Source of the DNA: a virus
DNA length: 15,026 nucleotides
Strand: one strand, 5' to 3'
IMG/VR virus record: IMGVR_UViG_3300045988_095445
Shown here: piece by piece, positions 698-15,026 of the stretch
How the letters are laid out: every line of letters begins with the position of its first letter
Position numbering within the stretch: position 1 is the stretch's first letter
Position numbers and translations under genes: made by a program
The notes under the pieces: generated by a model
Seen by the model: only the letters and a program-made list of their open reading frames with translations
The model's database searches: none
What the model was told of the DNA's origin: nothing

Positions 698-716
698 TTT
701 AATCTTTTTCCTCTTG

Positions 717-1900: not shown

Positions 1901-1972
1901 CGGGCCGAGTCGCCCGCGACCGGCCCGCCCAAAATTTTGCATAAAAAAAATCTCCCCTTATGGGGAGATTTT
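1901..1972 (-). terminator. Double intrinsic terminator: a GC hairpin (1901-1927, CGGGCCG...CGGCCCG) followed by hairpin TCTCCCC-TTAT-GGGGAGA (1951-1969) flanked by A- and T-runs, so it is bidirectional.
   Basis: Perfect stems. Same architecture as the intergenic modules further right. Confidence 0.7.
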
Positions 1973-1975
1973 TCT

Positions 1976-2326: not shown

Positions 2327-2351
2327 ACCAACTATAACTTACCTCTTTTCT

Positions 2352-2379
2352 GGTAGGGCCGGGGTAGGCCGACCCTACC
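2352..2379. terminator. GC-rich hairpin GGTAGGG...CCCTACC between gene 2383-2700 and the GIY-YIG gene.
   Basis: 7-bp stem. T-rich on the + side only, so it may act as an attenuator. Confidence 0.35.
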
Positions 2380-2382
2380 CCG

Positions 2383-2700
2383 TTATTTCTTCGGTTTACG
2401 CTTTTGCACAAGCGTCAACTCGAAACTATCCCCACCAATAGAAAACGCAATCTGTCTTTCCTTGTTAGTAATAGACAAGTCAGCGATAGAGAATTGACTG
2501 TTTTTTTCCAAAAACTCTGCCAATTCCGCAATTATACCGCCTTTCGTGGCGTTTGGCTTGCGTTGCCGTGTAGTGAACTTATATGCGGTTGGCTGTTTGC
2601 GCGTTCCAGCATGGGCAAACTTTTGAGCGATTTTCGCCTTTTCTGGCGGTAAATCGTATTCAGTCTTTTTATCAGCCTCTACCGCCTTATCATAGGCCAA
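2383..2700 (-). CDS. Hypothetical basic protein, 105 aa.
   Basis: ORF with TAA stop and SD GAGGAGG upstream. No motif recognised. Confidence 0.55.
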   Translation of the reverse strand: MAYDKAVEADKKTEYDLPPEKAKIAQKFAHAGTRKQPTAYKFTTRQRKPNATKGGIIAELAEFLEKNSQFSIADLSITNKERQIAFSIGGDSFELTLVQKRKPKK

Positions 2701-2805
2701 TAAATCTGCCTCCTCTTCCGGCGTTAATTGCAGGGCTTTATACCTTGCAATCCGTTCAGCGTCACTAATGCGACTGGATATAATATCACCCCCATATTAT
2801 AAGTT

Positions 2806-2830
2806 AGGGCGGGGATTTTCACCCCGCCCT
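2806..2830 (-). terminator. Hairpin AGGGCGGGG-ATTTTCA-CCCCGCCCT. It is nearly identical to the hairpin at 5597-5622.
   Basis: 9-bp perfect stem immediately after the stop of gene 2839-3249. Confidence 0.6.
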
Positions 2831-2838
2831 ATACGGGG

Positions 2839-3249
2839 TTACGCCATCTTAAAGAGGGACTTGCCCTTCTTCTCCGTGCAGACTACTCGACCATCGAATT
2901 TCAACTGCCGCACAAGAGCGGCGACCTTCTGGTTAGAATAGGCCGTCAGATCAGGAATAGCCTTAAAAATTTCCGTGCAGGTCACGCCATCGGTATCGGC
3001 GTCCAGACCAGCCAGATACTCCATAATCTGCTCCTTAAAATTCTCATTCTCCTGCTGGGTGGGAGTCAACTTCTTATCACCGCTGGAGCTATTCTTCTTA
3101 CGCAGAAGCTCCAGCTCATGGTCAATGACAGTAATAGCCACCTCGATGGTAGTGCCATACTTTACCTCGCCGTCAGTCAAGAGGGCCTTAATGTCCTCAA
3201 AACGCTGGGCCTTAGTAGTGCGGATTTTCTTCTCGTCCATAATATACAT
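2839..3249 (-). CDS. Hypothetical protein, 136 aa. It is driven by four tandem promoters.
   Basis: ORF with TAA stop and SD AAAGGA. The C-terminal VTCTEIFKAIPDLTAYSNQKVAALVRQLKFDGRV might be a winged-helix, but that is weak. Confidence 0.6.
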   Translation of the reverse strand: MYIMDEKKIRTTKAQRFEDIKALLTDGEVKYGTTIEVAITVIDHELELLRKKNSSSGDKKLTPTQQENENFKEQIMEYLAGLDADTDGVTCTEIFKAIPDLTAYSNQKVAALVRQLKFDGRVVCTEKKGKSLFKMA

Positions 3250-3283
3250 CCTTTCTGGTTTTTAGGACTGTCCTTGTCCTTTG

Positions 3284-3490
3284 ATTATATTGTACCACAC
3301 TATTTGGTACTTGTCAAGAGGTTTTTCAAACTTTTTTCAAGAACTTTTGCTCTTTACTTGTTTGCCCTCTCAACCTCCCTTATAGTGTAACACACTTTGG
3401 AAAGTTTGTCAAGTCCTTTTTATTTAATTTTCAAGGTACATTGCCTTGTTTTCTGTACCTATTATAGCACATCTTCAAAGGCTTGTCAAG
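3284..3490 (-). promoter_or_regulatory. Three tandem near-consensus sigma-A/sigma-70 promoters on the minus strand, each with extended -10 (TGn).
   Basis: TTGACA-17-TGgTACAAT (3289-3317), TTGACA-17-TGtTACACT (3384-3412) and TTGACA-17-TGcTATAAT (3461-3489). Spacers counted directly. Confidence 0.75.
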
Positions 3491-3560
3491 AGGTTTTTGA
3501 AAGATTTTTGAGAAATTCGCTGTCGCTGTCTGCCGTTCGTTTCTCTCACTTTCTGAATGT

Positions 3561-3760
3561 ATTTTACCACAAGCAAAAGCAGATTGCAAGCGTCAAATTG
3601 CACAAAAATTGGAATTTTGGGAGAAAGTTTTTGTGCAGAATTTTGCACAAAACGGGGCTGAAATTTTTGTGCAACATTTACAAAGAAAAACTCGGGTCGC
3701 GCCGTTCCTGCGCGACCCGCTCAAATTTTGTATAAAAAAAGAAGGGCCGAAGCCCTTCTT
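3561..3760 (-). promoter_or_regulatory. Intergenic module A. On the minus strand it runs: terminator 1 (3741-3758), GC-hairpin terminator 2 (3693-3719), palindrome TTGTGCA-N6-TGCACAA (3631-3650) plus half-sites TTGCACAA (3598) and TTGTGCAA (3666), then promoter TTGCAA-17-TGgTAAAAT (3561-3589).
   Basis: Read directly. Terminator 1 (AAAAGAAGGGCCGAAGCCCTTCTT) is identical to 6509-6531. Confidence 0.7.
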
Positions 3761-3941
3761 AACAGAAAATACAGTTATCCAGAAAATCAAACAGGTGTTC
3801 ATCCTCAATGGGAACATTTACCAGCATATTTCCATCTTCGTCAATATCATCATGACACCATCCTATACGCTCAATAATTTGAATTGCCATGTAAACGGCA
3901 TCTGCACACAGAGAAGAGGTATATACAATTTTTGTTACCAT
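3759..3941 (-). CDS. Small protein, 60 aa (MVTKIVYTSSLCADAVYMAIQIIERIGWCHDDIDEDGNMLVNVPIEDEHLFDFLDNCIFC).
   Basis: The 111-aa track ORF 3759-4094 is a fusion artefact. The real start is ATG 3941, with SD GAGGAGG 6 nt upstream, right after the TAA of the upstream gene. Confidence 0.6.
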   Translation of the reverse strand: MVTKIVYTSSLCADAVYMAIQIIERIGWCHDDIDEDGNMLVNVPIEDEHLFDFLDNCIFC

Positions 3942-3942
3942 T

Positions 3943-4134
3943 TTATTCCTCCTCGAAATCATCAACCCCATATTGTCTCTGATATTCGTCACAGTCAAAC
4001 CATGGCTCACCCAAAGAGCAACAAAGTGATTCCGTGTCAAAATCTGGACAGATAGTATCATAGATTTGTTCTGGATCCATGCCTTCCTCGGCATAATGCG
4101 GGCAACTCCACCGCATACAATGAACCTGAGACAT
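3943..4134 (-). CDS. Small acidic Cys-rich protein, 63 aa (six Cys, possible Zn-binding).
   Basis: ORF with TAA stop and SD AAAGGA. Stop-start adjacent to the 60-aa gene. Confidence 0.55.
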   Translation of the reverse strand: MSQVHCMRWSCPHYAEEGMDPEQIYDTICPDFDTESLCCSLGEPWFDCDEYQRQYGVDDFEEE

Positions 4135-4148
4135 ATTATTTCCTTTCT

Positions 4149-4176
4149 GCCGGGCGGGGCTTTAAGCCCCTACCCG
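4149..4176 (-). terminator. Hairpin CCGGGCGGGGCTT-TAA-AGCCCCTACCCGG.
   Basis: Stem GGGGCT/AGCCCC plus an outer CCGGG/CCCGG pairing, immediately downstream of the exonuclease stop. Confidence 0.5.
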
Positions 4177-4986
4177 GATAGTTGGAATTGAACGCATACT
4201 TGCGGAAAGCTGACGCTGAAAATCTGTCATAGGAGGAAATTCTCTCTTATTCTCATACAGAGCCTTTCTCATGGGCTTATGTTGACGCATACAGTACCAC
4301 ATGATTTCCGCCTCAATGAGAACATCTTCAAGCCCCGTATGACTTTCCTCAAAATCGGTATTTCCAGAGATAAACCGCCACACGATTTCCGCAGTCTTAC
4401 GAGGAACGCCATTGGCCTGGATATATCCATTTTCCTGACAGAATTTCTTATAAGTGGGCATATTGCAGATAACATCTTGTGTCATCTTCATAATGTCCCA
4501 AATTTCCACACTGTCAAACGGGAACCAGTAGCGAAACTTAGAGCAAGTGACCCATCGTTGAATGACCCGCAGAGCGTTATCGTCAAACCGGGCATTATAA
4601 GCAGCCACCTCTTTAATGCCGTATCGCTCGATAGTATCAAGCATAGCCTGCCGGATTTCATAGGTTGTAGCCATCTTACGAGTGCCGGCCCGCAATTCCT
4701 CAACATAGCGGGGGATTTTCCAATTATAATAGGCCGTCCGCATTAAATCCCGCTCGTCATTGAAAATGTCCCGATTTACAAAACTTGCAGTTTCGTAAAT
4801 ATTGCCCTTGGTATCTACTACGGCCCAGCCGCAGTCATATACCAGTACATTTGACATATCCATGCGGACACGCTCAGGAGTGATAATCTCCCCATCTTCC
4901 CCGATTTCAGCGGGAACGGTTTCGGTTAGTGTGTTGGCGGTTTCAGTGTCAACCACCAGCACATAATGTCTGCGTTTATCAATCAT
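4162..4986 (-). CDS. DEDDh-family 3'-5' exonuclease (DnaQ/RNase T-like), 274 aa.
   Basis: Exo I VLVVDTETAN, Exo II VAAYNARFDDNAL and Exo III HTGLEDVLIEAEI (H-x4-D) in canonical order. Confidence 0.75.
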   Translation of the reverse strand: MIDKRRHYVLVVDTETANTLTETVPAEIGEDGEIITPERVRMDMSNVLVYDCGWAVVDTKGNIYETASFVNRDIFNDERDLMRTAYYNWKIPRYVEELRAGTRKMATTYEIRQAMLDTIERYGIKEVAAYNARFDDNALRVIQRWVTCSKFRYWFPFDSVEIWDIMKMTQDVICNMPTYKKFCQENGYIQANGVPRKTAEIVWRFISGNTDFEESHTGLEDVLIEAEIMWYCMRQHKPMRKALYENKREFPPMTDFQRQLSASMRSIPTIRVGA

Positions 4987-5020
4987 AATCTATCAAGTCC
5001 TTTCTTCTCTTGATGGTATT

Positions 5021-5049
5021 ATTATAGCACATTTAAGGCTTGGTGTCAA
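5021..5049 (-). promoter_or_regulatory. Consensus promoter TTGACA-17-TGcTATAAT (minus strand).
   Basis: -35 at 5044-5049 and -10 at 5021-5026, spacer 17. Confidence 0.7.
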
Positions 5050-5211
5050 GAGGAAAAGGAAATTTTGTTGCGATTTATTGCAAGCTACTGGACGATGGAA
5101 TGGCCTATTCCAAAGGCGCTCGCTCGACTTATAACACAAATACCCATTTTCTTCCTTTACTTTCTAAGAGTTCGCGACCTCTTGATTTCTTGGCCTCTCC
5201 CTCCTGACATG

Positions 5212-5380
5212 ATAATAATACCATACTTTTGGGAGAATTGCAAGATGGCAAATTGCACAACTTTTTGCCACCAAAATTGTGCAACATCTACAAAGAAAAA
5301 AATTCGGCGCGCCGCGTGCGTCAGCGCGCCGCTCAAATGACAATAAAAAAATACCCCTCTCATTATTGAGAGGGGTATTT
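5212..5380 (-). promoter_or_regulatory. Intergenic module B: terminator hairpin 5353-5378, GC-hairpin terminator 5305-5331 (identical to 6461-6487), TTGCACAA (5253) and TTGTGCAA (5278), promoter TTGCAA-17-TGgTATTAT (5215-5243).
   Basis: Read directly. Confidence 0.7.
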
Positions 5381-5581
5381 TTAATATCCAATATATTCCC
5401 TGTTGATTAGTTCATCTATTCCGTATACCAGATCATCAAGAGAGATAGGAAAGTCATCATCAATTTCATTATCTTCCATATTCCTGCTAATCTGGCTTAT
5501 GAGGATTGACGCATCTCTCAAGGCTTTTTTCTCTATCGAACCGAGAACAAGCCTATTAACTTTCCGAATTTCCATTTGCAA
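5381..5581 (-). CDS. Small acidic protein, 66 aa.
   Basis: ORF with TAA stop. No promoter of its own, so it is probably co-transcribed with the upstream genes. Confidence 0.45.
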   Translation of the reverse strand: MQMEIRKVNRLVLGSIEKKALRDASILISQISRNMEDNEIDDDFPISLDDLVYGIDELINREYIGY

Positions 5582-5596
5582 AACTCCCTTTCTTTG

Positions 5597-5622
5597 CGGG
5601 GCGGGGATTTTAACCCCGCCCT
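5597..5622 (-). terminator. Hairpin GGGCGGGG-ATTTTAA-CCCCGCCC. It is a near-copy of the 2806-2830 hairpin.
   Basis: 8-bp GC stem after the stop of gene 5628-6089. Confidence 0.55.
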
Positions 5623-5627
5623 CTTAC

Positions 5628-6089
5628 TCAGTTTAGATTGTTGATATATTCGATTATGTCTGTCTCTCCTGGATTTATTGTATCTCCTAAATGCCAACCG
5701 TGCCTAATTTTATCATTATCATCAAAAAGGATAAACGGCGGTTCATAGAAACTACGGAATACACATTTGGCTTTGGTCGTTCCGTATGCTACACAATGGC
5801 ATTTATGAGCCGGGAATTTATACCTTGCAAGCCATTCCTTTTTAGCGGCTGTGACTGCTTTCTTATATTCGGGAGTGCTTTCGGGCGGTAGCCATGTAAT
5901 TACTCTAATTTCCCATCCGTTATTGATTGCCTTTAGAAGCGCATTTCTAAGAGCTTCCATGTCCCACATAGGGGCCGCGTCTCGGAATGGGGTGGGGTCT
6001 CCATTGCGGAGTTTTTCGAGCCAATTAGGGACTGCATACAAGTCCGCGATAGTTCCATCCATGTCAAAGCAGAGCATTTTTTTAGTCAT
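5628..6089 (-). CDS. HAD-superfamily hydrolase, probably a 5'(3')-deoxyribonucleotidase-like (NT5C family) nucleotidase, 153 aa.
   Basis: Motif I FDMDGTIAD (DxDGT), Ser/Thr motif (VITW), Lys (KKEW) and motif IV FDDND. The start overlaps the upstream gene end. Confidence 0.6.
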   Translation of the reverse strand: MTKKMLCFDMDGTIADLYAVPNWLEKLRNGDPTPFRDAAPMWDMEALRNALLKAINNGWEIRVITWLPPESTPEYKKAVTAAKKEWLARYKFPAHKCHCVAYGTTKAKCVFRSFYEPPFILFDDNDKIRHGWHLGDTINPGETDIIEYINNLN

Positions 6090-6095
6090 TGTATA

Positions 6096-6344
6096 TCAAT
6101 CTCCTTTTGTTTTATTATACCACTTGTTGCCTACCTTGTCAACAAGTTTTTCAAAAAAAGTTTTACGCCGACATACCTTATAAGGTATTGACATATAATC
6201 TACATAGATCAGAGGATCTTGTAAAAGCACAGTCTGTATATAAATCTCATAATTAACCGGGGTAGTAGTATGCCCGAATTGTCTATGATAAATTTCAGCT
6301 ACGGTTAAGTATTCGTTAGGCTGAATAAACTTTGAAGGTTTCAT
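6096..6344 (-). CDS. Hypothetical protein, 82 aa. Its 3' end encodes the promoter and SD for the HAD gene.
   Basis: Strong SD GGAGGGG. TGA stop 6 nt before the HAD ATG. Confidence 0.55.
   Translation of the reverse strand: MKPSKFIQPNEYLTVAEIYHRQFGHTTTPVNYEIYIQTVLLQDPLIYVDYMSIPYKVCRRKTFFEKLVDKVGNKWYNKTKGD
6114..6142 (-). promoter_or_regulatory. Consensus promoter TTGACA-17-TGgTATAAT embedded inside the coding sequence of gene 6096-6344. It drives the HAD gene.
   Basis: -35 at 6137-6142, -10 at 6114-6119, spacer 17. Confidence 0.55.
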
Positions 6345-6371
6345 TTAGTATCCCCTCCTTTTTCTGTACTA

Positions 6372-6531
6372 ATAATACCATAATTTAAGGATAATTGCAA
6401 GATGGCAAATTGCACAAGATTTCAAGACAAAAATTGTGTAGAACTTACAAATAAGAAAACTCGGCGCGCCGCGTGCGTCAGCGCGCCGTCGAATTTTTAG
6501 TATATAAAAAAGAAGGGCCGAAGCCCTTCTT
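6372..6531 (-). promoter_or_regulatory. Intergenic module C: terminator 6512-6529 (same as 3741-3758), GC hairpin 6461-6487 (same as 5305-5331), TTGCACAA (6409), TTGTGTAG (6433), promoter TTGCAA-17-TGgTATTAT (6372-6400).
   Basis: Read directly. Confidence 0.7.
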
Positions 6532-6990
6532 TTATCTTTCAGCCATATTTGAAAAATACCTTGCGACTAGTTTAACCATTTCATGAATAGATTCATCATT
6601 GTGCAAATTTTTGTAACAAATGAATCCAATTTGTCCACCATCAGAAAAAATGGGAGTAATAAACATAGATTTCCACGCTGTCGCAGGTTGGCTGATATTA
6701 CTCCATTCATCTGGTGGTATAGAAATTTTGAAAGAACTAGGCCCGCTTAAAAGTTTATCTGAATCGAAGATTGCCGCGGAAATGTGATTAACAGAAAGGG
6801 CATTTCGCATTTCGTGGGCATGGTCAACGAAAAAAGATAGTGGAGAATATTTCTTGAAGGCTATACAGTCGCCATCAAGAAAAATTTCCATAGGGTCGCC
6901 TTCTCTAATTCGCATACTCCTACGAATTTCTCTAGGAATAACAATACGCCCTAGGTCATCAATATGTCGAACAATACCAACAGCTCTCAT
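6532..6990 (-). CDS. spoVT: SpoVT/AbrB-family regulator. It has an N-terminal swapped-hairpin DNA-binding domain and a SpoVT-like (GAF-type) C-terminal domain, 152 aa.
   Basis: GIVRHIDDLGRIVIPREIRRSMRIREGDPMEIFLDGDCIAFKKYSPLS is near-identical in pattern to B. subtilis SpoVT (GIVRRIDDLGRVVIPKEIRRTLRIREGDPLEIFVD...KKYSPIS). The C-terminal ...PIFSDGGQIGFICY...LVARYFSNMAE resembles SpoVT ...PIVANGDPIGAVVIF...FLARQME. Confidence 0.85.
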   Translation of the reverse strand: MRAVGIVRHIDDLGRIVIPREIRRSMRIREGDPMEIFLDGDCIAFKKYSPLSFFVDHAHEMRNALSVNHISAAIFDSDKLLSGPSSFKISIPPDEWSNISQPATAWKSMFITPIFSDGGQIGFICYKNLHNDESIHEMVKLVARYFSNMAER

Positions 6991-6999
6991 TTTTTTATC

Positions 7000-7033
7000 G
7001 CGGGAGCATAGAATACAAGTCCTATACTCCCGC
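7000..7033 (-). terminator. Weak hairpin GCGGGAG-N20-CTCCCGC between genes 7045-7443 and 6532-6990. It is possibly an attenuator.
   Basis: 7-bp stem with a long loop. No promoter lies between the two genes. Confidence 0.3.
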
Positions 7034-7044
7034 GCCTCCTTTCC

Positions 7045-7443
7045 TTAAAGCGATTTCCGCAGTTCGTCTAGTAGAGTAGACAGAGTTTTCATATCGCCGC
7101 CCATTTCCAGCTTGACACAAATCAGGCTTGCATTTTCCTCTACCCACTTTGTCACAGTGGACAGCTCTTCATCCATCGTTTGATTGATGGGGTTGTAAAG
7201 ACTGCACATATTTGACTTGGCGCACTCCGGGTCATAATAGCGGCGGAGCTTATATCCCTTTGCCGTGGCGCGCTCAATAATCTTTGTATTCAGCGCCTCA
7301 ATCTCTTTCCGGCCTTCCTCGATAAAATCCTCAAACTCTTTCATAGCTCCCGCATACTTGGCTCGGATTTCCTCTCGTTTGGCGTTCGCAATCTTGTTGA
7401 CCTCGTCATTGATATAGGCTTCAATCCTCTTAGTAACACGCAT
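7045..7443 (-). CDS. Hypothetical protein, 132 aa.
   Basis: ORF with TAA stop and the promoter just upstream. Confidence 0.55.
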   Translation of the reverse strand: MRVTKRIEAYINDEVNKIANAKREEIRAKYAGAMKEFEDFIEEGRKEIEALNTKIIERATAKGYKLRRYYDPECAKSNMCSLYNPINQTMDEELSTVTKWVEENASLICVKLEMGGDMKTLSTLLDELRKSL

Positions 7444-7501
7444 TTCTAAAACTCCCTTTCTTATTTTAATTTATTTTTGGGGCTGCCCCTTCCATAGTCT
7501 T

Positions 7502-7530
7502 ATTGTACCACAGAAGGGGCAATTTGTCAA
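7502..7530 (-). promoter_or_regulatory. Promoter TTGACA-17-TGgTACAAT.
   Basis: -35 at 7525-7530, -10 at 7502-7507. Confidence 0.7.
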
Positions 7531-7537
7531 CCCCTTT

Positions 7538-7768
7538 TTACAAGGAAAGTAAATCCATCATAGTCATTTCATCAACCGCCTTATCGGCTTCCTCATCGAA
7601 AATACCCTTGATAATATCGGCCGCGTCATCGGGAGTACATATGCCGATCCGCAGGAATTTCCCCAAAGACTGGAGCATTGCCTGTGCTGCTTCTCCTGGG
7701 CAGAACTCCTCCATGGTCTTATGCAGAAGAATAATCCCCTGTCTATCCTGCTCAGTCATTCTATACAT
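7538..7768 (-). CDS. Hypothetical acidic protein, 76 aa.
   Basis: ORF with TAA stop. Confidence 0.5.
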   Translation of the reverse strand: MYRMTEQDRQGIILLHKTMEEFCPGEAAQAMLQSLGKFLRIGICTPDDAADIIKGIFDEEADKAVDEMTMMDLLSL

Positions 7769-7819
7769 AGCAATATTTCCTTTCTGGTTTAATGAGTTTT
7801 CCTTCTCTTTACATTATTG

Positions 7820-7848
7820 ATTATACCACTGTTTAAGCGGTTTGTCAA
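7820..7848 (-). promoter_or_regulatory. Promoter TTGACA-17-TGgTATAAT.
   Basis: -35 at 7843-7848, -10 at 7820-7825. Confidence 0.7.
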
Positions 7849-7852
7849 CCCT

Positions 7853-7990
7853 TTACATCAAATTTTTTGCCAAATATGCGAACATTAGAATTTCTGCGGC
7901 AAACATGATTTCAAGCCGAATACAGCCTTTTTGAGCAGCCGCCATTAACTGCCATGCAAGGCAGGCCACAAACGCAATCAAAACAATCAT
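7853..7990 (-). CDS. Possible 45-aa hydrophobic peptide (MIVLIAFVACLAWQLMAAAQKGCIRLEIMFAAEILMFAYLAKNLM).
   Basis: ORF below the track cutoff. The SD is 22 nt from the ATG and the ORF lies between a terminator and the next promoter, so it may not be expressed. Confidence 0.2.
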   Translation of the reverse strand: MIVLIAFVACLAWQLMAAAQKGCIRLEIMFAAEILMFAYLAKNLM

Positions 7991-8023
7991 TGTGAAGGTA
8001 GTTATATATATACTCCTTTTCTG

Positions 8024-8050
8024 GTTAAGAGGGTTTATACCCTCTTAACC
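8024..8050 (-). terminator. Hairpin GGTTAAGAGGG-TTTATA-CCCTCTTAACC overlapping the stop of gene 8035-8268.
   Basis: 11-bp perfect stem with the TAA stop in the loop. Confidence 0.55.
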
Positions 8051-8268
8051 TCGATAATCTCCATATCGAAATCTTCCCAATATGCGCCCATGAGAAGGTC
8101 ATGCCGCAAGTCCCCTTCATTCTCATAGTCCATATCTTCCAGAATTTGGCTCCACTCGCTTTCGGAATACTGGGCCTTGAGCCAGTCCCATCCCGCATGG
8201 CGTGCGCCAGTTTCAGTATCAGAAACGCCGATAATCTTTTCTCTACTGTCAGCCATTACCAGATACAT
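8035..8268 (-). CDS. Hypothetical acidic Trp-rich protein, 77 aa.
   Basis: ORF with SD AAAAGGAGA and TAA stop. Confidence 0.55.
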   Translation of the reverse strand: MYLVMADSREKIIGVSDTETGARHAGWDWLKAQYSESEWSQILEDMDYENEGDLRHDLLMGAYWEDFDMEIIEVKRV

Positions 8269-8321
8269 AACTCATTCTCCTTTTGTTTCGAGGGCTTTTG
8301 TTCTCCCCTCTTGATGATACA

Positions 8322-8505
8322 AGTATAACAGATAGCAGATAGAAAGTCAAGCAATTTTGGGAAAAAATCTTCCGTCAGATTGCACAACAATTCGAGCCTA
8401 AAATTGTGCAAATTGCCTCTTGATAAAAAATTCCGGCCGCGCCTGTGGTGCACGGCCGGGCGAACGAATAAAAAAAAAGAACCTCCTGAATTTCAGGAGG
8501 TCATT
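8322..8505 (-). promoter_or_regulatory. Intergenic module D: terminator 8481-8504 (ACCTCCTGA-ATT-TCAGGAGGT), GC hairpin 8433-8459, TTGTGCAA (8404), TTGCACAA (8380), promoter TTGACT-17-TGtTATACT (8322-8350).
   Basis: Read directly. Confidence 0.7.
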
Positions 8506-8543
8506 AATTTCTGCATACCAACAACTTCCTTTCTTTTGAGAAG

Positions 8544-8777
8544 TCAATCGGCATTTTCAACAATCTTTAATCCGTTTGCTTGGATAATTTTCATAGCTTC
8601 TTCAAGCGAGGAATCAACCGATCCGCAGTCGATACAGATATATTTTCTGCCATCTTTTACCATAGTAGTAAAATAGTATTCTTGGCCAGAAACAAGGCCC
8701 ATCTACTCTCGCAGTCTTACTGGAATCATGATACGCCCACTTGAATCTAATTTCCTTGAGAAAGTAGTTTCTTGCAT
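8544..8777 (-). pseudogene. AbrB-fold (swapped-hairpin) gene with one in-frame TAG at 8703-8705. It is either an amber-recoded gene (one 77-residue protein) or a nonsense pseudogene.
   Basis: MQETTFSRKLDSSGRIMIPVRLRE-[TAG]-MGLVSGQEYYFTTMVKDGRKYICID... aligns colinearly with AbrB RKVDELGRVVIPIELRR-T-LGIAEKDALEIYVDD, with the TAG occupying one residue position. There is no SD upstream of the ATG. Stop is TGA at 8544. Confidence 0.55.
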
Positions 8778-9014
8778 TTTGATAAATAAATTCTAGTGAC
8801 CTAGGCTCGTGCGAAAAACGACTCCATCACGGGAATCGCCGATTTAGAACAATCGGAAGGAACATTTACCACTCGCAAGGCATTTTCTGGCAGAACTGAG
8901 ACATAGGGCAATTTTACAAGAATCCTAGTTCAAACAGAACTCTAAAATAACCGCGAGTGCTTTCAGCACTTCTAAGGTCATTAGAAAAACTCCTTTCTTT
9001 ATTTTTCTATAATT

Positions 9015-9043
9015 ATTATAATATATTTTTTTGAAAAAATCAA
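9015..9043 (-). promoter_or_regulatory. Promoter TTGATT-17-TATAAT, followed by SD AAAGGAG and an 18-aa ORF (8923-8979) containing hairpin GAAGTGC-TGAAA-GCACTTC, then about 200 nt untranslated.
   Basis: -35 at 9038-9043, -10 at 9015-9020. Leader-peptide-like arrangement upstream of the AbrB-like gene. Confidence 0.45.
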
Positions 9044-9182
9044 TAGGGCCGGCATTACGCCAGCCCTAATCTCTGTAACCAAACCAGATGGTATTTACCA
9101 ATGTGAAGTAGAACTGTGCCATATCCCTTATTTGTCCAAACAGTGGAACCGATAGGATATGTATGCGGTAAACGCTCAATAC

Positions 9183-9398
9183 TCACTTTAGTTCCACCTC
9201 CTCGAAAGCTCCAATTTTTAGCAGATAATTATATAAGGCTCTATCTTGTTTGTCGCCGGTATTAAAATCAAGAGTACGAACACAGCCGGTAACATTGGAA
9301 TTAAGAGGATGATTCAAACACCAACCAGCCATATTACAAATTGTGTCTCCAAACTCCGCAGATTTTTCTACACTTTCAAATTTAATAACAGCAATCAT
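9183..9398 (-). CDS. Hypothetical protein, 71 aa.
   Basis: Strong SD AAAGGAGGAAT. TGA stop. Confidence 0.55.
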   Translation of the reverse strand: MIAVIKFESVEKSAEFGDTICNMAGWCLNHPLNSNVTGCVRTLDFNTGDKQDRALYNYLLKIGAFEEVELK

Positions 9399-9421
9399 AT
9401 TTATTCCTCCTTTTTATCATG

Positions 9422-9450
9422 GGGAGTGGAGGTTTGTGGCCTCCACTCCC
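9422..9450 (-). terminator. Hairpin GGGAGTGGAGG-TTTGTGG-CCTCCACTCCC between co-oriented genes. It may act as an attenuator.
   Basis: 11-bp stem. The next gene's SD follows immediately with no promoter. Confidence 0.5.
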
Positions 9451-9460
9451 GCAAGTTTTC

Positions 9461-9700
9461 TTAATCATCTACATAAATGATTAAATTGTTATCTCTTGCC
9501 TCAATGCCGGTTACCTGAAGTCCTAGAACCCATTCCTTAGATATCTCGATTACGTCTCCTCCCAGAGTTATTCTACCATCAGGTAATTCATGGTAATGAG
9601 CTTGGGTATTCTTATTGATAATTTCAAATCCCTCCCCGTCAAAGAACATAGTATCTTCTGCAAGCGGAGAAAGTAACCAAGCAACCATATCTAAAGTCAT
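9461..9700 (-). CDS. Hypothetical acidic protein, 79 aa.
   Basis: ORF with SD AAAGGAAG and TAA stop. Confidence 0.55.
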   Translation of the reverse strand: MTLDMVAWLLSPLAEDTMFFDGEGFEIINKNTQAHYHELPDGRITLGGDVIEISKEWVLGLQVTGIEARDNNLIIYVDD

Positions 9701-9754
9701 TTTTTTTACTTCCTTTCAAATTCTTTTTGTGGCCTGTCCCTTTGGACAAGTATA

Positions 9755-9955
9755 TAATAACACATGGCAAAAGGAATGTCAAGTAATTTCGGGAGAAAAA
9801 CTTTCGTCGAATTGCACAGACTTTCGGTCATATAATTGTTGAAATTGCCGAATAAATAAAAATTCGGGCCGCGGCGCACGCTGGCGGCCCGGCGAAAAGT
9901 CAATATGGAAAAGTGCATAAAAATGACTGGCAATCTTTGTGTAGATTGCCAGTCA
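9755..9955 (-). promoter_or_regulatory. Intergenic module E: terminator 9925-9953 (11-bp stem), GC hairpin 9865-9891, TTGCACAG (9812), promoter TTGACA-17-TGtTATTAT (9755-9783).
   Basis: Read directly. Confidence 0.7.
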
Positions 9956-9967
9956 AGTATTATTCCT

Positions 9968-10201
9968 TTACAGCTCCATGGTTTCCATGAGATAGCCCGT
10001 GCCCATCGGCACCTCCCGCAGATTGCTGGGACTTATACGCAACTTATATTTCCTATTGATTTTATTCGCCGCACTTGTCTTATCTCTCGCTTGGACAATT
10101 ACTGGTATATGGAGTTTATTTAGAGTGGGCTTATTAAGACTGAAATATCCCATCTCTCTGCGCTTGCGGCCCATGGCGTCGATATAAGTCCCTCTATACA
10201 T
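9968..10201 (-). CDS. Hypothetical basic protein, 77 aa.
   Basis: SD GGAGG 5 nt before the ATG. TAA stop followed by a terminator. Confidence 0.55.
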   Translation of the reverse strand: MYRGTYIDAMGRKRREMGYFSLNKPTLNKLHIPVIVQARDKTSAANKINRKYKLRISPSNLREVPMGTGYLMETMEL

Positions 10202-10212
10202 TTTTCCTCCTA

Positions 10213-10359
10213 TTATTTAGTCATGAGAACGAACATATTATATTCGCTGTGCTGTGGGTTTGGCTCACAGTTATCTGCCACTATATCAGCCCAACTAAGA
10301 ACTGTCCAGAGTAGGAGAGCGGCACAAATGCCGCCTCCTATCCGCTTAATAATTCTCAT
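10213..10359 (-). CDS. Small membrane or secreted peptide, 48 aa (MRIIKRIGGGICAALLLWTVLSWADIVADNCEPNPQHSEYNMFVLMTK).
   Basis: Its ATG overlaps the TGA of the upstream gene (ATGA). The N-terminal hydrophobic segment suggests a membrane location. It is below the track cutoff. Confidence 0.4.
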   Translation of the reverse strand: MRIIKRIGGGICAALLLWTVLSWADIVADNCEPNPQHSEYNMFVLMTK

Positions 10360-10658
10360 TTCCATTTCTTTGCCTCCTGTTCTTTAACCCATTCAGTACC
10401 GATTGTATCTCCGACCATAGCAACCTTATATTCGTCTTCGCTTACAATTCTGGTATGCAGATTGCTATTGATAAACTTTCTATTGATATAAGCCCAGTGT
10501 GGCATATAGGCCACTCGCATGGCATTAAAAGCATCCAGGTCTAAGATGATGCCGTCCTCTACCTCTGCGGAACGCACATTCATCTTATACCGCAAAAGTT
10601 TAATAAATTCACGCTTTCTAAAAGTAGGCCCAACGAACCATTTAATATAATTGTTCAT
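10356..10658 (-). CDS. Hypothetical protein, 100 aa.
   Basis: ORF with SD GGGGAGAAAGGA and TGA stop. Confidence 0.55.
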   Translation of the reverse strand: MNNYIKWFVGPTFRKREFIKLLRYKMNVRSAEVEDGIILDLDAFNAMRVAYMPHWAYINRKFINSNLHTRIVSEDEYKVAMVGDTIGTEWVKEQEAKKWK

Positions 10659-10704
10659 AGTCTTTTATCCTTTCTCCCCGTATAGCCGTTAGGTCAGCTT
10701 CTTT

Positions 10705-10851
10705 TTAATCTACGATTTCTCCACTGGATAAATCCACAATCCAATGATTAGGATTGACTATCTCGTGACTGACCTTCCATCTTGCCATTGAAAGGGTGGA
10801 TGGTTCATAATAGCGCATTTTCTCATTGGCTAAAACTTGTAACTGATACAT
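10705..10851 (-). CDS. Small protein, 48 aa (MYQLQVLANEKMRYYEPSTLSMARWKVSHEIVNPNHWIVDLSSGEIVD).
   Basis: SD AAAGGGG 8 nt upstream. It is the first gene of a four-gene unit. Below the track cutoff. Confidence 0.35.
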   Translation of the reverse strand: MYQLQVLANEKMRYYEPSTLSMARWKVSHEIVNPNHWIVDLSSGEIVD

Positions 10852-10880
10852 ATAGTATGCCCCTTTCTTTTAATTATTAT

Positions 10881-10917
10881 AACCCTGCCTTGCCTTGTGT
10901 TTTGCAAGGCAGGGTTT
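10881..10917 (-). terminator. Hairpin AACCCTGCCTTGC-N-GCAAGGCAGGGTT.
   Basis: 13-bp stem after the stop of gene 10926-11300. Confidence 0.65.
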
Positions 10918-10925
10918 ATAAACTG

Positions 10926-11300
10926 TTATCCTCTAATTTCTTCTTCTTGGGTCTTTGTCGCCCAATCAAAAGAGGTACGAACATCGGAAGGTCTGCGGAA
11001 TTGCTCTGCTTCGGCCTCTGTCCCGCCTAATGCCATAGCATAGGCTTTCCAGTCAACCGTTCCTTTTGCGGTAGTTTCTTTATATACCACCGCTTTCGCC
11101 TTACTTTGCATTTGTACCGTGCCATATAGATAACTTGTTTTGTCCGTAGCCTTAAAAGCCTTACCTAATCTGGAGAATAGCTCTTTAGCCTTAGCCTTAG
11201 CTGCTTTCTCCGCCGCCTCCGCCGCAGACTTAGCCATCTTAGCGGCCATATACTCCATAATAATGGCTCGATCTTCATTGGTAAAATCAATCTTTTTCAT
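10926..11300 (-). CDS. Hypothetical Ala/Lys-rich protein, 124 aa. The true start is the internal ATG at 11300, not 11363.
   Basis: SD AAAGGGAG lies inside the track's N-terminal extension, so the track start is wrong. Contains coiled-coil-like AAKMAKSAAEAAEKAAKAKAKE. Confidence 0.55.
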   Translation of the reverse strand: MKKIDFTNEDRAIIMEYMAAKMAKSAAEAAEKAAKAKAKELFSRLGKAFKATDKTSYLYGTVQMQSKAKAVVYKETTAKGTVDWKAYAMALGGTEAEAEQFRRPSDVRTSFDWATKTQEEEIRG

Positions 11301-11353
11301 ACTCTTTTGACTCCCTTTCTTTTTGTGGTGTGGTTCTCTTTTGTTCTGTCTGT

Positions 11354-11479
11354 ATTGTATCAAACCTTTAGCAGTTTGTCAATACCTTTTTTGAAATTTT
11401 TTTAATTTTCAAAGTGCCGTGCTTTTGTCTCTGTCCTACTGGACAAGTCCAGTTTACCACCAAAATGCTCACTTGTCAA
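11354..11479 (-). promoter_or_regulatory. Two tandem promoters: TTGACA-17-TGaTACAAT (11354-11382) and TTGACA-17-TGgTAAACT (11451-11479).
   Basis: Spacers counted directly. Confidence 0.65.
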
Positions 11480-11504
11480 TAGTTTTTTTGAAATTTCTTT
11501 CTCT

Positions 11505-11570
11505 CTCTTTTGCACAAAATAAATAACATCTTGTTGTGCAGTTTGCACAAATCCTTTACGCGCGCGTATT
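11505..11570 (-). promoter_or_regulatory. Partial module F: TTGCACAA (11510), palindrome TTGTGCA-GTT-TGCACAA (11534-11550) and short GC palindrome TACGCGCGCGTA (11557-11568).
   Basis: Read directly. Confidence 0.55.
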
Positions 11571-11574
11571 CCTT

Positions 11575-11660
11575 TAGGGGGCGTGCTTTCTTGCTTTCGT
11601 ACTTTAACGAGTGAAAGAGGCCAACTACACTTCAATACTTTACCATGTGAAAGAGGGGCG
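11575..11660. repeat. Two ~22-nt direct repeats, TACTTTA(A/C)C(G/C)(A/G)(G/T)GTGAAAGAGG, bracketed by GGGGCGTG at both ends.
   Basis: Copies at about 11599-11621 and 11634-11656. GGGGCGTG at 11576 and 11656. Confidence 0.4.
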
Positions 11661-11753
11661 TGTATTTTGGGAAAAACTGGAAATTTTTTTGTAAAATCGT
11701 TCTGCCACGCCATTTCAAAATCTAAATCGACTTTTCAATCTCAATAACGAAAA

Positions 11754-11778
11754 AGAGAGAAGAACTCACTTCTTCTCT
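11754..11778 (-). terminator. Hairpin GAGAGAAG-N9-CTTCTCTC followed by a T-run. It shares the stem sequence of the 672-697 terminator.
   Basis: 8-bp stem followed by TTTTTCGTTATTG on the minus strand. Confidence 0.6.
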
Positions 11779-12188
11779 CCGCATTTACACTTCTTTTTTA
11801 AATTATATATAATATGATATTCTCCACAGACTTTGCCGTCAAACCATACTAATACTTTATCCATCGTCGGTTGCCTCAAAACTAAAAATCAAATTATATC
11901 CATCCTCTAGTTTAATATTAATCGCATCAGATCTCCACATTGTAGGAATATACTCTAGCCTTGGATAACGATTGTTCTGTCAACAATAGTAAAATCAAAA
12001 CTATCCTAATTCTTCGCTCTACAAACTACTCCGCTATCCAATTATGGAATAAGTCTCTATAGAGGCTTATTCCTATATGATATATAAGACCGTCAACTTC
12101 TTTACTTCCCCAATATAACTTTTCCAATAGAAGCATGGGAAACTTGTGCGGCAAGTTTCCCTAGTCTCACCTCGCAATAATTAATTGC

Positions 12189-12640
12189 TTAAAACCTCCA
12201 AGAAAATTCTAAAATTGCGGGAATTGCAAAATAGATATTTGGAATATTATAATTGCGGGCTGCGTTTACGAGCAAGGTGGCGACCGTTGATGGATCTTGC
12301 ATAAAAACACCACAGCCCCAGGCTCCCGCGATTAAATTTTCCACTCCCTTAACCTCGGCAATTCTCTCTTCCATTATCCTATTGTTTAGAGAAAGAGGAA
12401 CTTTACATCAGCTAATTTTATACTATCGTCTTTTTCAAAGACTATAGATAGCTCTATCAAGATATAGGGCTCGATTCAGTCTCTGCCATAAGTATCATCA
12501 AAAGCAAGAAGAATAGGGTAAAGGTTGCTTTCGTGACACAATGCCTCTTCTACCACCTGGATGTATAATTTAAGATCGCAGTCTTGCTCCGATCGGTTAA
12601 ACCGAATAGACAGGATACGCTATCTTGGTCTTTAAGATAA
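12189..12640 (-). pseudogene. Decayed PARG-like macrodomain (DUF2263/TIGR02452-type) gene. Three collinear fragments are broken by TGA, TAA and a frameshift. The track ORF 12189-12374 is the C-terminal fragment.
   Basis: Fragment ...YIQVVEEALCHESNLYPILLAFDDTYGRD*(TGA) resembles the QEE/LCR-S-LY region. Then IEPYILIELSIVFEKDDSIKL* follows, then (frameshift) MEERIAEVKGVENLIAGAWGCGVF... with the GAWGCGVF diphosphate-loop motif. Family assignment is from memory of the motifs. Confidence 0.45.
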
Positions 12641-12713
12641 AAGGTATTATGGTGGGTTTCTCGCGGTTTTTGCAGTTTCCTTTCTTCCGTGCGGTTGGGC
12701 AGAAGTGGATAAT

Positions 12714-12893
12714 TTAATTATCCCAATCTTCAAATAAAGTGTGTAAACTATTTGTTTCCGCCGCCAATCTCTTTAAATATTCTTTAAGAATTTTATTTTC
12801 TTTAACTTTAATTGCATAATCGCAAGTATTGTCGCAGTCTGGTGTGTACTACCGACCGAATCTATTATAACAATAATCAATACAAGGACACAT
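12714..12893 (-). CDS. Small Cys-rich protein, 59 aa (MCPCIDYCYNRFGR-[TAG]-YTPDCDNTCDYAIKVKENKILKEYLKRLAAETNSLHTLFEDWDN) with one in-frame TAG.
   Basis: The ATG sits 1 nt after the TAA of the upstream gene (TAAAATG). No TAA/TGA until the end, and TAG at codon 15. Below the track cutoff under the standard code. Confidence 0.45.
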
Positions 12894-12894
12894 T

Positions 12895-13248
12895 TTACTC
12901 ATATTTACACCCATTCATTCTACAGTCTATTGTGCATTGCCCTGACGCTCCTTCACAAGGAATAGCATCAGGATAGTATTCAAAATAAGACGAGGTTAAT
13001 AGAACTTCATATCCAAGTTCCCGCAGTATTCTTTCTGCGACATATCTATCTCTTAATTTAATCCATTCTTCTCTATTTACTTTTGTTTCTTCATATATTT
13101 TTCGAGATTCTTCCATATCTATTGTTATGATACCATCGGTGTTAGTTTTAAATACTGAAGGACTTTGTGTATGATAAAATTTTCGAAAGGGATTGTTAAT
13201 ATGAAGAACTTCTTCAGCATATTTGTCAAAATCTCCCGAAAATTTCAT
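12895..13248 (-). CDS. Hypothetical Cys-rich protein, 117 aa (C-terminal CEGASGQCTIDCRMNGC). The true start is ATG 13248, overlapping FolD's TAA (TAATG).
   Basis: The track ORF 12895-13341 is N-terminally over-extended into FolD. It is translationally coupled to FolD. Confidence 0.55.
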   Translation of the reverse strand: MKFSGDFDKYAEEVLHINNPFRKFYHTQSPSVFKTNTDGIITIDMEESRKIYEETKVNREEWIKLRDRYVAERILRELGYEVLLTSSYFEYYPDAIPCEGASGQCTIDCRMNGCKYE

Positions 13249-14033
13249 TATCTTTGCGCCTGTTTCGCTAACTATAAACAATTTTTCATCAACCCCAATC
13301 TTGTTAATAGACCTACTCCTCCGGGGACAGGAGTTGACCATACATTATTTCTTTTTGCGATTTCATCAATTTCTACAAAATCACCAAGAATAATTCCTGC
13401 TTCATTTCTGCGAATACCAACATCTATAACAATAGCGTTAGGACAGGCTTCTCTTGTTAAGCTAAATTTTCCTACCGCAGAGACAATTAAATCTGCTTGC
13501 CTTGTTAAATAGAGTTTTGTATTTATATCTGTTTTGCTATGACATACTGATACGGTCATATTTCTATCCAGTAGAGCTTTAGCCATTGGCTTTCCTACAA
13601 TATCGCTTCTTCCCAAAACAACAGCAGATTTACCTTCGTAGTTAAAACCACATTCATCCAAATAGTCTATAATTCCTCTTACTGTTGCTGGAGTAATATT
13701 GCTCATAGGATTTAAACCATCCGCATCTTTAGAGATAGGTATTTGACTATAATTGAAATCAATTCCATTTGCTACTGGCATTTGAACTATTACCGCATCC
13801 CAGTCTTTCGCATGGCCTAAGAGTAATCTTAACTCTACTGAACTATTCGCTCTAAACACTTCTGCTTCCCAACCAAGAGCATTAAAGTCTTTTATTTTAT
13901 TACGAATATAAATTTGATTTGCGGGATCCTAGGCTGTTGCGTCGATAATCATGAGTGATGGAACATTACCACTAATCTCCCGCAATTTGTTTACCTATTG
14001 TTGAAAATATTCTTTTATATTAATCTATTGCAT
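13248..14033 (-). CDS. folD: FolD (bifunctional methylene-THF dehydrogenase/cyclohydrolase), 261 aa when TAG is read as sense. It has four in-frame TAG codons (14025, 13995, 13929, 13272) and a TAA stop at 13248.
   Basis: The track fragment 13272-13859 shows GKSAVVLGRSDIVGKPMA...VIDVGIRRNE...TPVPGGVGLLT, the canonical FolD C-domain. Upstream in-frame translation continues colinear with the FolD N-terminus (...NVPSLMIIDATA[TAG]DPANQIYIRNKIKDFNALGW) back to ATG 14033 with SD GGAGG. Only TAGs interrupt the frame. Confidence 0.8.
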
Positions 14034-14352
14034 CTGGATCAAGCCTCCAAGGATCACTAGTATCGTAATCAATCATTTCATAGAAAGATATTTCATTTTC
14101 ATTAACTTCTAATACCTAGTGAGGAATACACTATACTTCATAATCAAAATCTTTATTAATATGGTAAGAAGTATATATATGAATAGCAATAGGTCTAGGA
14201 TCATTAACTCCCTAAATATCCCATAAACTTATTGCTTTATTTTGGAAGATTTCCTAAGCATACTATGGAGATATAGCAATACTGATTATTAAGATATTAA
14301 AATAATACTATGCTTTTTCCGGTAAATCTAAATATGGTTCGTCAAAGAACAT
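14020..14352 (-). CDS. Hypothetical protein, 110 aa, with six in-frame TAGs and a TAA stop. It is the first gene of the leftward operon.
   Basis: ATG 14352 with SD AGGAG. 111 codons contain six TAGs and no TAA/TGA. The translation looks protein-like (..DPRPIAIHIYTSYHINKDFDYEV..). Its end overlaps the FolD start. Confidence 0.5.
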
Positions 14353-14389
14353 TGGCAAACAAATCTCCTATCTTATTTTTTATAATTAT

Positions 14390-14454
14390 ATTATAGCATT
14401 TTTAAATAAATTAATCAAATAAGATTTGACAATCTAGTTTTTTTTTGTTATTAT
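14390..14454. promoter_or_regulatory. Divergent back-to-back consensus promoters: minus-strand TTGATT-17-TGcTATAAT (14390-14418) and plus-strand TTGACA-17-TATTAT (14426-14454).
   Basis: Spacers counted directly. The plus -10 abuts ATG 14455, so the real start of the plus gene is ATG 14479. Confidence 0.7.
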
Positions 14455-14478
14455 ATGAGTATAAAAGGAGATGACAGT

Positions 14479-15026
14479 ATGATAAAATTAGATTATACTA
14501 TTGAGTCTCCAGAAGAACGGAAGGCGCTTGTCGAAAAAATAATCGCAGAAAATCCGAACCTTAGTTCGAGTTATTTAGAAATATTAGCAGATTATTTAGT
14601 TCTATGTATGGAAAAGCAAGAGAAGAAAGAAAAGAATATATTAACAGATAATAGAATGGCTACTGTTAATAAAAGAGAATGTTCTTTCGAAGGGCTTGCG
14701 TCATAGATGGAAAATGGCGAGGATGGCATTTATGGTTTAATGTCAGAAAATAAAAATGTTATATTTTAGCCAAAGATTTCTATTACACAGAAAGATTTAG
14801 ATACTATACCATGTTTAAAATAGTTGAGAGAAACCATTAATGTCTGGGAGGGCGCTTTAAAACGCGCTGCTGGGACAAAATAGGCATATATGATGAAAAA
14901 AGCATTAATAGAGATGCGAAAAGATTAGTATATCATTAAGCAAGCATATTAGAAACCTATTATACCATGTAAATTAACGAGATCCGTAAGAACTCATATT
15001 CCTCTTGATGATTAGAGTTATCTTAA
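14479..15026 (+). CDS. Partial gene (more than 180 codons, continuing past the window end). It has seven in-frame TAGs and no TAA/TGA.
   Basis: SD AAGGAG 14465-14470 with ATG 14479. The track ORF stops at TAG 14704. The same frame stays open through TAGs at 14704, 14767, 14821, 14881, 14926, 14950 and 15011 to the window end. Confidence 0.55.

Follow-up and report, generated by a model that had tools for sequence, protein, structure and literature searches.

The window analysed here, 15,026 nt of viral DNA (IMG/VR record IMGVR_UViG_3300045988_095445), carries on its minus strand, between 11766 and 12673, what is very probably the non-functional wreck of a four-gene accessory cassette in a TAG-recoded human-gut phage, a cassette that would be dispensable when intact and whose manner of loss goes beyond neutral decay. 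The four genes, PARG-PTH2-ORF3-ORF4 (ORF, open reading frame), are all pseudogenised in the window, and intact, selected orthologues exist. A sequence-only reading had proposed a decaying remnant of a PARG-like macrodomain gene at 12189-12640, and the profile and homologue searches, together with the intact syntenic orthologues, bore this out. The extent, instead, had to be revised: the PARG remnant covers 12181-12673, and that reading had caught the first of the four genes only, overlooking PTH2 and two small ORFs, wrecked down to 11766. That an uncharacterised phage lineage carries a pseudogene from a known family of enzymes is ordinary; what is unusual is the recurrence of deletions of about 12 nt anchored to a T.

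The minus strand, which is the coding strand for this part of the window, keeps 493 of the 768 nt of a bacterial-type PARG gene (PF10021/TIGR02452). Its three-frame translation gave the collinear PARG fragments EEALCHESNLYPILLAFDDTY and IVFEKDDSIKLADV, followed by MEERIAEVKGVENLIAGAWGCGVFMQDPSTVATLLVNAARNYNIPNIYFAIP..., so that all three fragments expected from the sequence-only reading were found on this strand, and the pieces EEALCHESNLY, VFEKDD and GAWGCGVF are still present. The parts of the remnant are the following.

12181-12673, minus strand: PARG remnant, from the alignment to the intact IMG/VR locus L005 and the profile match.
About 12488-12550, minus strand: PARG fragment EEALCHESNLYPILLAFDDTY, from the three-frame translation.
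About 12404-12443, minus strand: PARG fragment IVFEKDDSIKLADV, from the three-frame translation.
12189-12374, minus strand: largest surviving ORF, 61 aa, MEERIAEVKGVENLIAGAWGCGVF..., a C-terminal macrodomain segment with a frameshifted tail; the fragment GAWGCGVF of the three-frame translation lies inside it, on the same strand.
12674-12713, minus strand: kept leader; it contains GGAAGAAAGGAAA, the ribosome-binding stretch that belonged to the deleted PARG start codon.

The profile search suggested by the sequence-only reading was significant: the concatenated fragments (142 aa) matched NCBIfam TIGR02452 with E = 3.7e-13. In a search of 5.8 billion proteins they matched an intact 245-aa homologue (P0001) with E = 1.7e-37 and 66% identity, and the same search also returned dozens of short fragmentary relatives. 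Since both E-values are so low, the resemblance to PARG is real and far beyond chance; moreover, the kept segments share about 99% of their DNA sequence with intact orthologues located at the same place in the genome, and these E-values together with the synteny at DNA level ruled out a chance resemblance. The PARG ancestry of the fragments is certain, while the remnant itself does not rank as a member protein of the family. No tRNA or non-coding RNA was found in the region.

The deletions were defined by global alignment of the window to L005. Over the whole cassette (11766-12673, against L005 2998-4478) 18 deletions have taken away 626 of about 1526 nt, whereas the 900 kept nt show 10 substitutions and no insertion. 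Nine of the deletions, of 128, 11, 26, 13, 11, 46, 18, 13 and 12 nt, fall in PARG, with junctions at 12674/12673, 12565/12564, 12552/12551, 12488/12487, 12445/12444, 12404/12403, 12365/12364, 12228/12227 and 12191/12190, and they are followed by deletions of 13, 11, 12, 13, 198, 14, 42, 21 and 24 nt. Seven of the nine in PARG shift the frame, and the deletions of the window show no frame preference. The first one takes out the ATG and the first 41 codons, and that of 26 nt (junction 12552/12551) takes out the codons of YFLGGSSAQ, that is, most of the catalytic GG-X8-QEE loop including its Q, leaving only EE, out of frame with the preceding HPGG. The QEE catalytic region is therefore not kept in the form described in the sequence-only reading; the Q is not that of the motif, since 'QVVEE' comes from the HPGG codons (CAT CCA GGT GGT) read out of frame. 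Accordingly, the window copy has neither the catalytic signature GGG-X6-8-QEE nor an uninterrupted reading frame of about 250 aa that opens with a start codon.

The remaining genes of the cassette are wrecked in the same way, and the decayed zone is closed on both sides by intact elements, as listed here.

12006-12190, minus strand: PTH2 remnant, with the ATG deleted, four more deletions of 11-13 nt and a 198-nt deletion of the C-terminal half.
11857-12005, minus strand: remnant of the small lipoprotein-like ORF3, with a 14-nt deletion in the signal peptide/lipobox region and a 42-nt deletion.
11766-11879, minus strand: remnant of the small Cys-rich ORF4 (52 aa when intact), with in-frame deletions of 21 and 24 nt and part of the CxxC motif lost.
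11754-11780, minus strand: intrinsic-terminator hairpin ending the operon; the decayed zone stops just short of it.
12714-12914, minus strand: intact small Cys-rich ORF directly upstream, with one in-frame TAG, at the sharp upstream edge of the decayed zone.

The start codon of PTH2 was lost through a 12-nt deletion, and in the window neither a full-length match to PF01981 nor an intact ORF is left, only the recognisable pieces GKLAAQVSHAS, LYWGSKEV, DLFHNWIAE and VVCRAK. With both start codons and the greater part of the catalytic loop missing, the cassette can no longer yield an enzyme. With the standard code the longest ORF on the minus strand of 11750-12900 is that of 61 aa, and the longest stop-free stretch of the zone has 72 codons, or 85 if TAG is read as sense; reading TAG, TGA or TAA as sense, over the whole window and over the zone, restored no ORF. 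The sequence-only reading had held the gene to be broken by TGA, TAA and a frameshift; the breakage lies instead in the nine PARG deletions, and the TGA and TAA stops of the remnant are secondary, resulting from the frameshifts that the deletions cause. The cassette has the marks of a unitary pseudogene, namely an intact gene at the same position in close relatives, lesions for which no decoding rescue is known, and a parent under purifying selection.

The intact copy in related elements, which the sequence-only reading had recommended looking for, was found at the syntenic site of many loci (L001, L003-L009 and L011-L023), where the genes run FolD, small ORFs, PARG, PTH2. P0001 itself sits on the Logan contig L001 together with FolD, a 115-aa ORF, an overlapping PTH2 (PF01981) downstream of the PARG (PF10021), and small early-type ORFs. 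IMG/VR and human-gut metagenomes supplied 28 further loci, the longest contig being of 164 kb, and in the majority of these loci PARG is full-length; the related contigs are roughly 130-165 kb long, and upstream genes on them match Pfam families named after proteins of the SPbeta prophage (YonB, YonD, YonG). The flanks of the window are 92-96% identical to L001, and over 2357 nt upstream the window is 99.5% identical to the intact L005, with no indels. In L005 the cassette, at the 3' end of the FolD operon, encodes a 255-aa bacterial-type PARG, a translationally overlapping 145-aa PTH2, a small lipoprotein-like ORF and a 52-aa Cys-rich ORF, followed by the terminator, at these positions.

L005 3001-3768: PARG.
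L005 3753-4190: PTH2.
L005, ending at 4395: lipoprotein-like ORF.
L005 4373-4531: 52-aa Cys-rich ORF.
L005 4517-4543: intrinsic terminator.

The intact orthologues score 87-93 bits against PF10021 (92.8 among the values) and 80.5 bits against PF01981, over profile positions 1-115. Against solved PARGs, P0001 gave E = 2e-22 with 5ZDA of Deinococcus radiodurans and E = 1.7e-20 with 3SIG of Thermomonospora curvata; its PGG-YFLGGSSA-QEE loop was matched with the 5ZDA motif, and GAWGCGVF was aligned as well. The ratio of non-synonymous to synonymous substitution rates (dN/dS) between the two phage clades described below is 0.13 for PARG and 0.03 for PTH2, and on these values the intact copies are functional, selected genes. 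A protein-level search of GenBank phages gave only distant PARG homologues, in 20 records and never reaching 60% identity: 15 of the records are Prevotella Lak megaphages (about 40%), two are Bacillus megaterium phages, and three more belong to neither. No PHROGs family covers this PARG, while PTH2 corresponds to phrog_1866, which has no assigned function. Insertions at gene junctions were also observed in otherwise intact relatives, of 316 nt between PARG and PTH2 in L016 (about position 3746), and of 138 nt after PTH2 in L007 and L018 (L020 coordinate 4193).

As observed above, the ORF next to the decayed zone contains an in-frame TAG. The counts are 1 in this small Cys-rich ORF (12714-12914), 4 in FolD, 7 in the ORF at 14023-14379 and 7 in that at 14410-15024; the 18 TAGs of FolD and of the two latter ORFs are all kept codon-for-codon in L001, where the genes are called through TAG. 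These conserved in-frame TAGs in neighbouring ORFs are real support for TAG recoding of the code 15-like kind. No suppressor tRNA was found within this window. In-frame TAG is restricted to the ORFs at the 12714-15026 end, and the ORFs at 700-11700 are without any. Intact PARG and PTH2 have no TAG in 400 codons, which fits a module acquired from a standard-code genome. The sequence-only reading had also taken the breakage by non-TAG stops as an internal control for the recoding. As such a control the pseudogene is weak, because its out-of-frame segments hold all three stops and TAG about as often as the others (20 TAG, 24 TAA and 15 TGA over three frames); it shows only that reading TAG as sense brings no rescue. 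The use of TAG as sense by the neighbouring genes could suggest that the gene still works, being read through with recoded stop codons and/or programmed frameshifts. We consider this next to impossible, as the start codon with 41 codons and most of the catalytic loop are deleted, seven deletions shift the frame in PARG alone, TAA and TGA occur in every frame, no open stretch exceeds 85 codons even with TAG as sense, and the intact orthologues are without any TAG.

To describe the decay across lineages, the contigs encoding the fragmentary database proteins were taken as decayed alleles and aligned to intact references of both clades, the L005-type and the L020-type, which are about 75% identical to each other (loci L001-L040; decay zone at L005 2985-4516 and L020 2985-4530). 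The allele of the window itself had no match in an exact junction search of IMG/VR and in an exact protein look-up. In 15 decayed lineages we counted 155 deletion instances, corresponding to 139 distinct deletions, all between the PARG start and the terminator. Their sizes are sharply distributed, with 1 event each at 1 and 2 nt, none at 3-7 nt, 2 at 8 nt, 13 at 9 nt, 2 at 10 nt, 14 at 11 nt, 28 at 12 nt, 13 at 13 nt, 3 at 14 nt and 2 at 15 nt; beyond this peak at 12±1 nt, a second hump made up of 21 events spans 21-26 nt, and the tail reaches 258 nt. In the 13 heavily decayed lineages the zone shows about 137 deletions against about 276 substitutions, roughly one per two, whereas outside the zone the same comparisons gave about 14 deletions of at least 8 nt against 2937 substitutions, with indels mainly of 1-7 nt. 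Per substitution, the zone has over 100-fold more deletions than the flanks, in which long non-coding leaders are included. Extreme cases are L027, with 4 deletions and no substitution in 814 nt, and L010, with 14 deletions and 6 substitutions.

The breakpoints also show a bias. On the 5' side of the sense strand the last kept base is a T in 28 of the 41 unambiguous junctions (P = 2e-7), and on the 3' side the first kept base is a purine in 31 of the 41. In 24 of 77 short deletions the left junction reads T/G, where 5.5% would be expected (P = 2e-12), whereas the 3' boundary of these deletions shows no preference; the motifs enriched in the deleted segments, TGT and GTAT alone, follow from this T/G boundary. 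Microhomology at the junctions averages 1.9 nt, against 0.76 nt for random placement. Moreover, for 5 of the 24 short deletions of clade 2, clade 1 has at the homologous site a deletion of identical start and length, although the sequences diverge by about 25%. The start codon of PTH2 was removed by six different deletions and that of PARG by several, and overlapping deletion pairs are 77, against 48.6±6.8 expected (P = 0.0003). Gene copies that are still open carry in-frame deletions, in 5 of the 5 coding ones of L001 and in 8 of 9 of L032, the ninth removing the ATG. In rate, size spectrum, breakpoint bias and cross-clade recurrence, the decay departs from what neutrality would predict. In the literature no described equivalent of this deletion pattern was found.

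The low coverage of some contigs, such as L034 and L035 (cov 2.7-10), raises the question whether the deletions are artefacts of assembly or sequencing in a phage whose real gene is intact. This is very improbable, and we rejected it: lesions of one kind occur in SPAdes, MEGAHIT, Logan and IMG/VR assemblies, identical deletions come from independent samples (d13@3697 is common to the window, L006, L031 and L038, and d10@3493 to L031, L038 and L040), the flanks are free of indels at 99.5-99.8% identity, and the junctions have biological signatures in their microhomology and T preference. The fragment proteins form clusters of dozens of lengths, some of them present on up to 10 contigs. The shared and partly nested deletion sets, which grow from 3 in L006 to 5 in L031 and 12 in L038, rather indicate a stepwise accumulation.

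Such stepwise accumulation is also what plain neutral decay would give, under a general deletion bias acting once the cassette had become useless. In its favour, the limits of the zone are exactly those of a set of dispensable genes closing the operon, so that deletions there have no polar effects, and the lack of 1-7-nt indels is compatible with short divergence times. Nevertheless, this explanation is unlikely if compared with the data above: the excess of deletions over substitutions relative to the flanks, also where these are non-coding, the cases of L027 and L010, the in-frame deletions built up in lineages whose genes are still intact, and the exact recurrence across clades are all against it. 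Two other explanations, which are not mutually exclusive and in our opinion about equally likely, are both tentative and clearly below an even chance. According to one, the deletions were selected since they remove sequence recognised by nucleic-acid-guided host immunity (type III, type VI or primed type I CRISPR systems), and they are tolerated only in the dispensable operon tail. The high deletion load in the zone, the in-frame deletions of the intact genes and the sites hit repeatedly by different deletions are in agreement with it, and it has been reported that CRISPR targeting of non-essential phage regions selects microhomology-mediated deletions (PMC10132644). On the other hand, once shared boundaries are set aside the clustering of overlaps is modest (P = 0.02) and in clade 2 it is not significant; beyond the single T at -1, no motif resembling a protospacer-adjacent motif was seen at a fixed offset, positions -2 to -6 and the 3' side being at background; and selection alone leaves the size of 12±1 nt and the T at the 5' breakpoint unexplained. 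Hot-spot clustering as a proof of targeting was discarded, the effect being modest in another test as well (P = 0.01-0.04).

According to the other, a strand-polar enzymatic process, in which repair, replication or transcription might be involved, repeatedly cuts out or jumps over about 12 nt after a T; it would either act mainly in this region or leave traces there alone since selection purges its products elsewhere. The sharply peaked sizes with their second hump and the gap at 3-7 nt, the T and T/G preference on one side only, the exact cross-clade recurrence and the short microhomology all argue for it. UvrABC excises 12-13-mers and bacterial primers are about 11±1 nt long, which resembles the deletion size, and gyrase cleaves at T/G, which resembles the junction; these likenesses are leads, not tests. 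By contrast, the signature is not tied to any known enzyme, and such a process does not account for the confinement to 1.5 kb with sharp edges, unless selection does the confining. GC content, considered as a driver, explains little, with rho = -0.37 and P = 0.047 in one clade and no correlation in the other. The idea that translation protects and untranslated DNA is deleted was also a poor fit, as L005 3130-3400 is deletion-poor even when the ATG is lost.

A bolder reading, to which we give less than an even chance, is that an undescribed deletion process destroys the cassette, removing 12±1 nt (or about twice as much) per step right after a sense-strand T, with little or no microhomology, at identical sites in diverged clades, and at more than 100 times the flank rate per substitution. 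In one reading this process is an enzyme-specific footprint, linked to excision, primers or topoisomerase; in another it is the scar of nucleic-acid-guided immunity on a dispensable anti-defence module.

Some observations weigh against the account given here. The match of the concatenated fragments to TIGR02452, although highly significant, reaches 49.6 bits, just under the curated cut-off of 50, and that of the fragments alone to the Pfam profile (PARG_cat_microb/PF10021) reaches 14-15 bits, below the threshold of 23.5. A scan of 185,579 reference genomes with a single 20-mer from the most-hit site gave two chance matches only, with no prophage or spacer, a result that bears on the proposal of CRISPR targeting as well. 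Finally, a stretch of about 120 nt, within the 61-aa ORF at 12189-12374, was spared by the deletions in both clades and could mean a residual function.

That this C-terminal segment, or its DNA, keeps a function would be compatible with the rest of the cassette being a pseudogene. Deletions avoid L005 3560-3680 in 9-10 of the 11 clade-1 lineages and the homologous L020 3520-3680 in 4 of the 4 clade-2 lineages, where about 5 hits were expected, and an ATG-initiated ORF over the segment survives in most decayed alleles. We regard it as improbable, however, since a macrodomain piece of 60 aa is unlikely to fold, the cold spot was noticed post hoc, although replicated in clade 2, two lineages (L032 and L033) have deletions within the segment, and no family or RNA match was found for it. 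The spared stretch, of about 120-160 nt, encodes GVENLIAGAWGCGVF...NIPNIYFA.

As for the intact cassette, it would be an accessory, dispensable module, lost in many lineages, and it would most likely shield the infection, taking ADP-ribose off nucleic acids or proteins and returning blocked tRNAs to use. A role in counter-defence is thus plausible for the intact genes, as a candidate function. We know of no characterised PARG-PTH2 operon in which the stop and start codons overlap. Bacterial-type PARGs hydrolyse poly(ADP-ribose), 2'-OH RNA ADP-ribosylation and ADP-ribosylated phosphate ends (PMC11833690), and the intact operon of these uncultured gut phages pairs such an ADP-ribose hydrolase with a peptidyl-tRNA hydrolase; since bacterial-type PARGs have been shown to reverse RNA ADP-ribosylation, it is a candidate for counter-defence at the level of the translation apparatus. 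The most likely role would be to protect that apparatus or nucleic acids during infection, because some phage enzymes are known to counter defence toxins that ADP-ribosylate (PMC11825919), and a tRNA-freeing hydrolase would complement them. The anti-DarTG1 antitoxin-like enzymes of T4-like phages (PMC11825919) follow the logic proposed here, a phage hydrolase removing the ADP-ribose mark of a host toxin; there, however, the enzymes are NADAR/DarG-like, whereas the macrodomain here is of PARG type, the copy of the window is dead, and the role of its intact counterpart is a prediction.

Compared with the known enzymes of the family (PF10021/TIGR02452/DUF2263; 3SIG and DR_B0099, 5ZDA), the intact phage orthologues align across the macrodomain core, but have PGG rather than GGG, while the window copy lacks the start, most of the Gly-rich loop with its Q, and the continuity of the frame; likewise, the intact neighbour matches the full PTH2 profile, whereas the copy of the window lacks the ATG and the C-terminal half. 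The decay can be compared with two described situations. CRISPR-escape deletions in non-essential phage regions (PMC10132644) are similarly confined to dispensable DNA, with short junction homology and a region hit repeatedly, but there one large deletion is found, and here 4-18 small ones per lineage, with the narrow 12-nt mode and the T before the 5' breakpoints. Ordinary prokaryotic pseudogene decay (PMC522871) likewise leaves a disabled copy at the ancestral position of a probably acquired accessory gene turned dispensable; the present case differs from it by an indel/substitution ratio near 1:2, the lack of 3-7-nt indels, quantised sizes, occurrence in two clades and in-frame deletions in intact copies. 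Finally, the code 15 human-gut phages of Clostridia for which the name Phassvirus was proposed (PMC10607447), of about 135-150 kb, also have in-frame TAG in a subset of genes, whereas the window had no megablast match among GenBank phage records and its related contigs encode the YonB, YonD and YonG families.

The pseudogene alone is useful mainly for annotation, as a record that this TAG-recoded gut-phage lineage used to possess a PARG-PTH2 module and that modules of this kind come and go. The recurrent shredding of the same 1.5 kb, in dozens of independent lineages, is, instead, a natural experiment, which could reveal a deletion-forming enzyme in infected cells or the footprint that selection by host immunity leaves on dispensable phage DNA.

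Other elements were observed in the rest of the window. At 1-166 a 27-nt unit, ATTTCATGGTATTCTGACAATACTATG, is present five times, in direct and inverted orientation, in an array that resembles iterons or operators. On the minus strand, a near-consensus sigma-70-type promoter module (TTGACA, 17 nt, TGnTAnAAT) is repeated upstream of small early-type ORFs, at 3289-3323, 3384-3418, 7502-7536, 7820-7854 and 11354-11388. A weak, sub-threshold Rfam match to the PyrG leader lies at 5340-5413 (E = 0.06). A family of GC-rich hairpins with a conserved upstream sequence occurs at 1896-1934, 3688-3726, 5300-5338, 8428-8466 and 9860-9898; two copies (5213-5331 and 6370-6488) extend to a 119-nt repeat with 84% identity, and the family may represent repeated terminator or leader modules in the long non-coding stretches.

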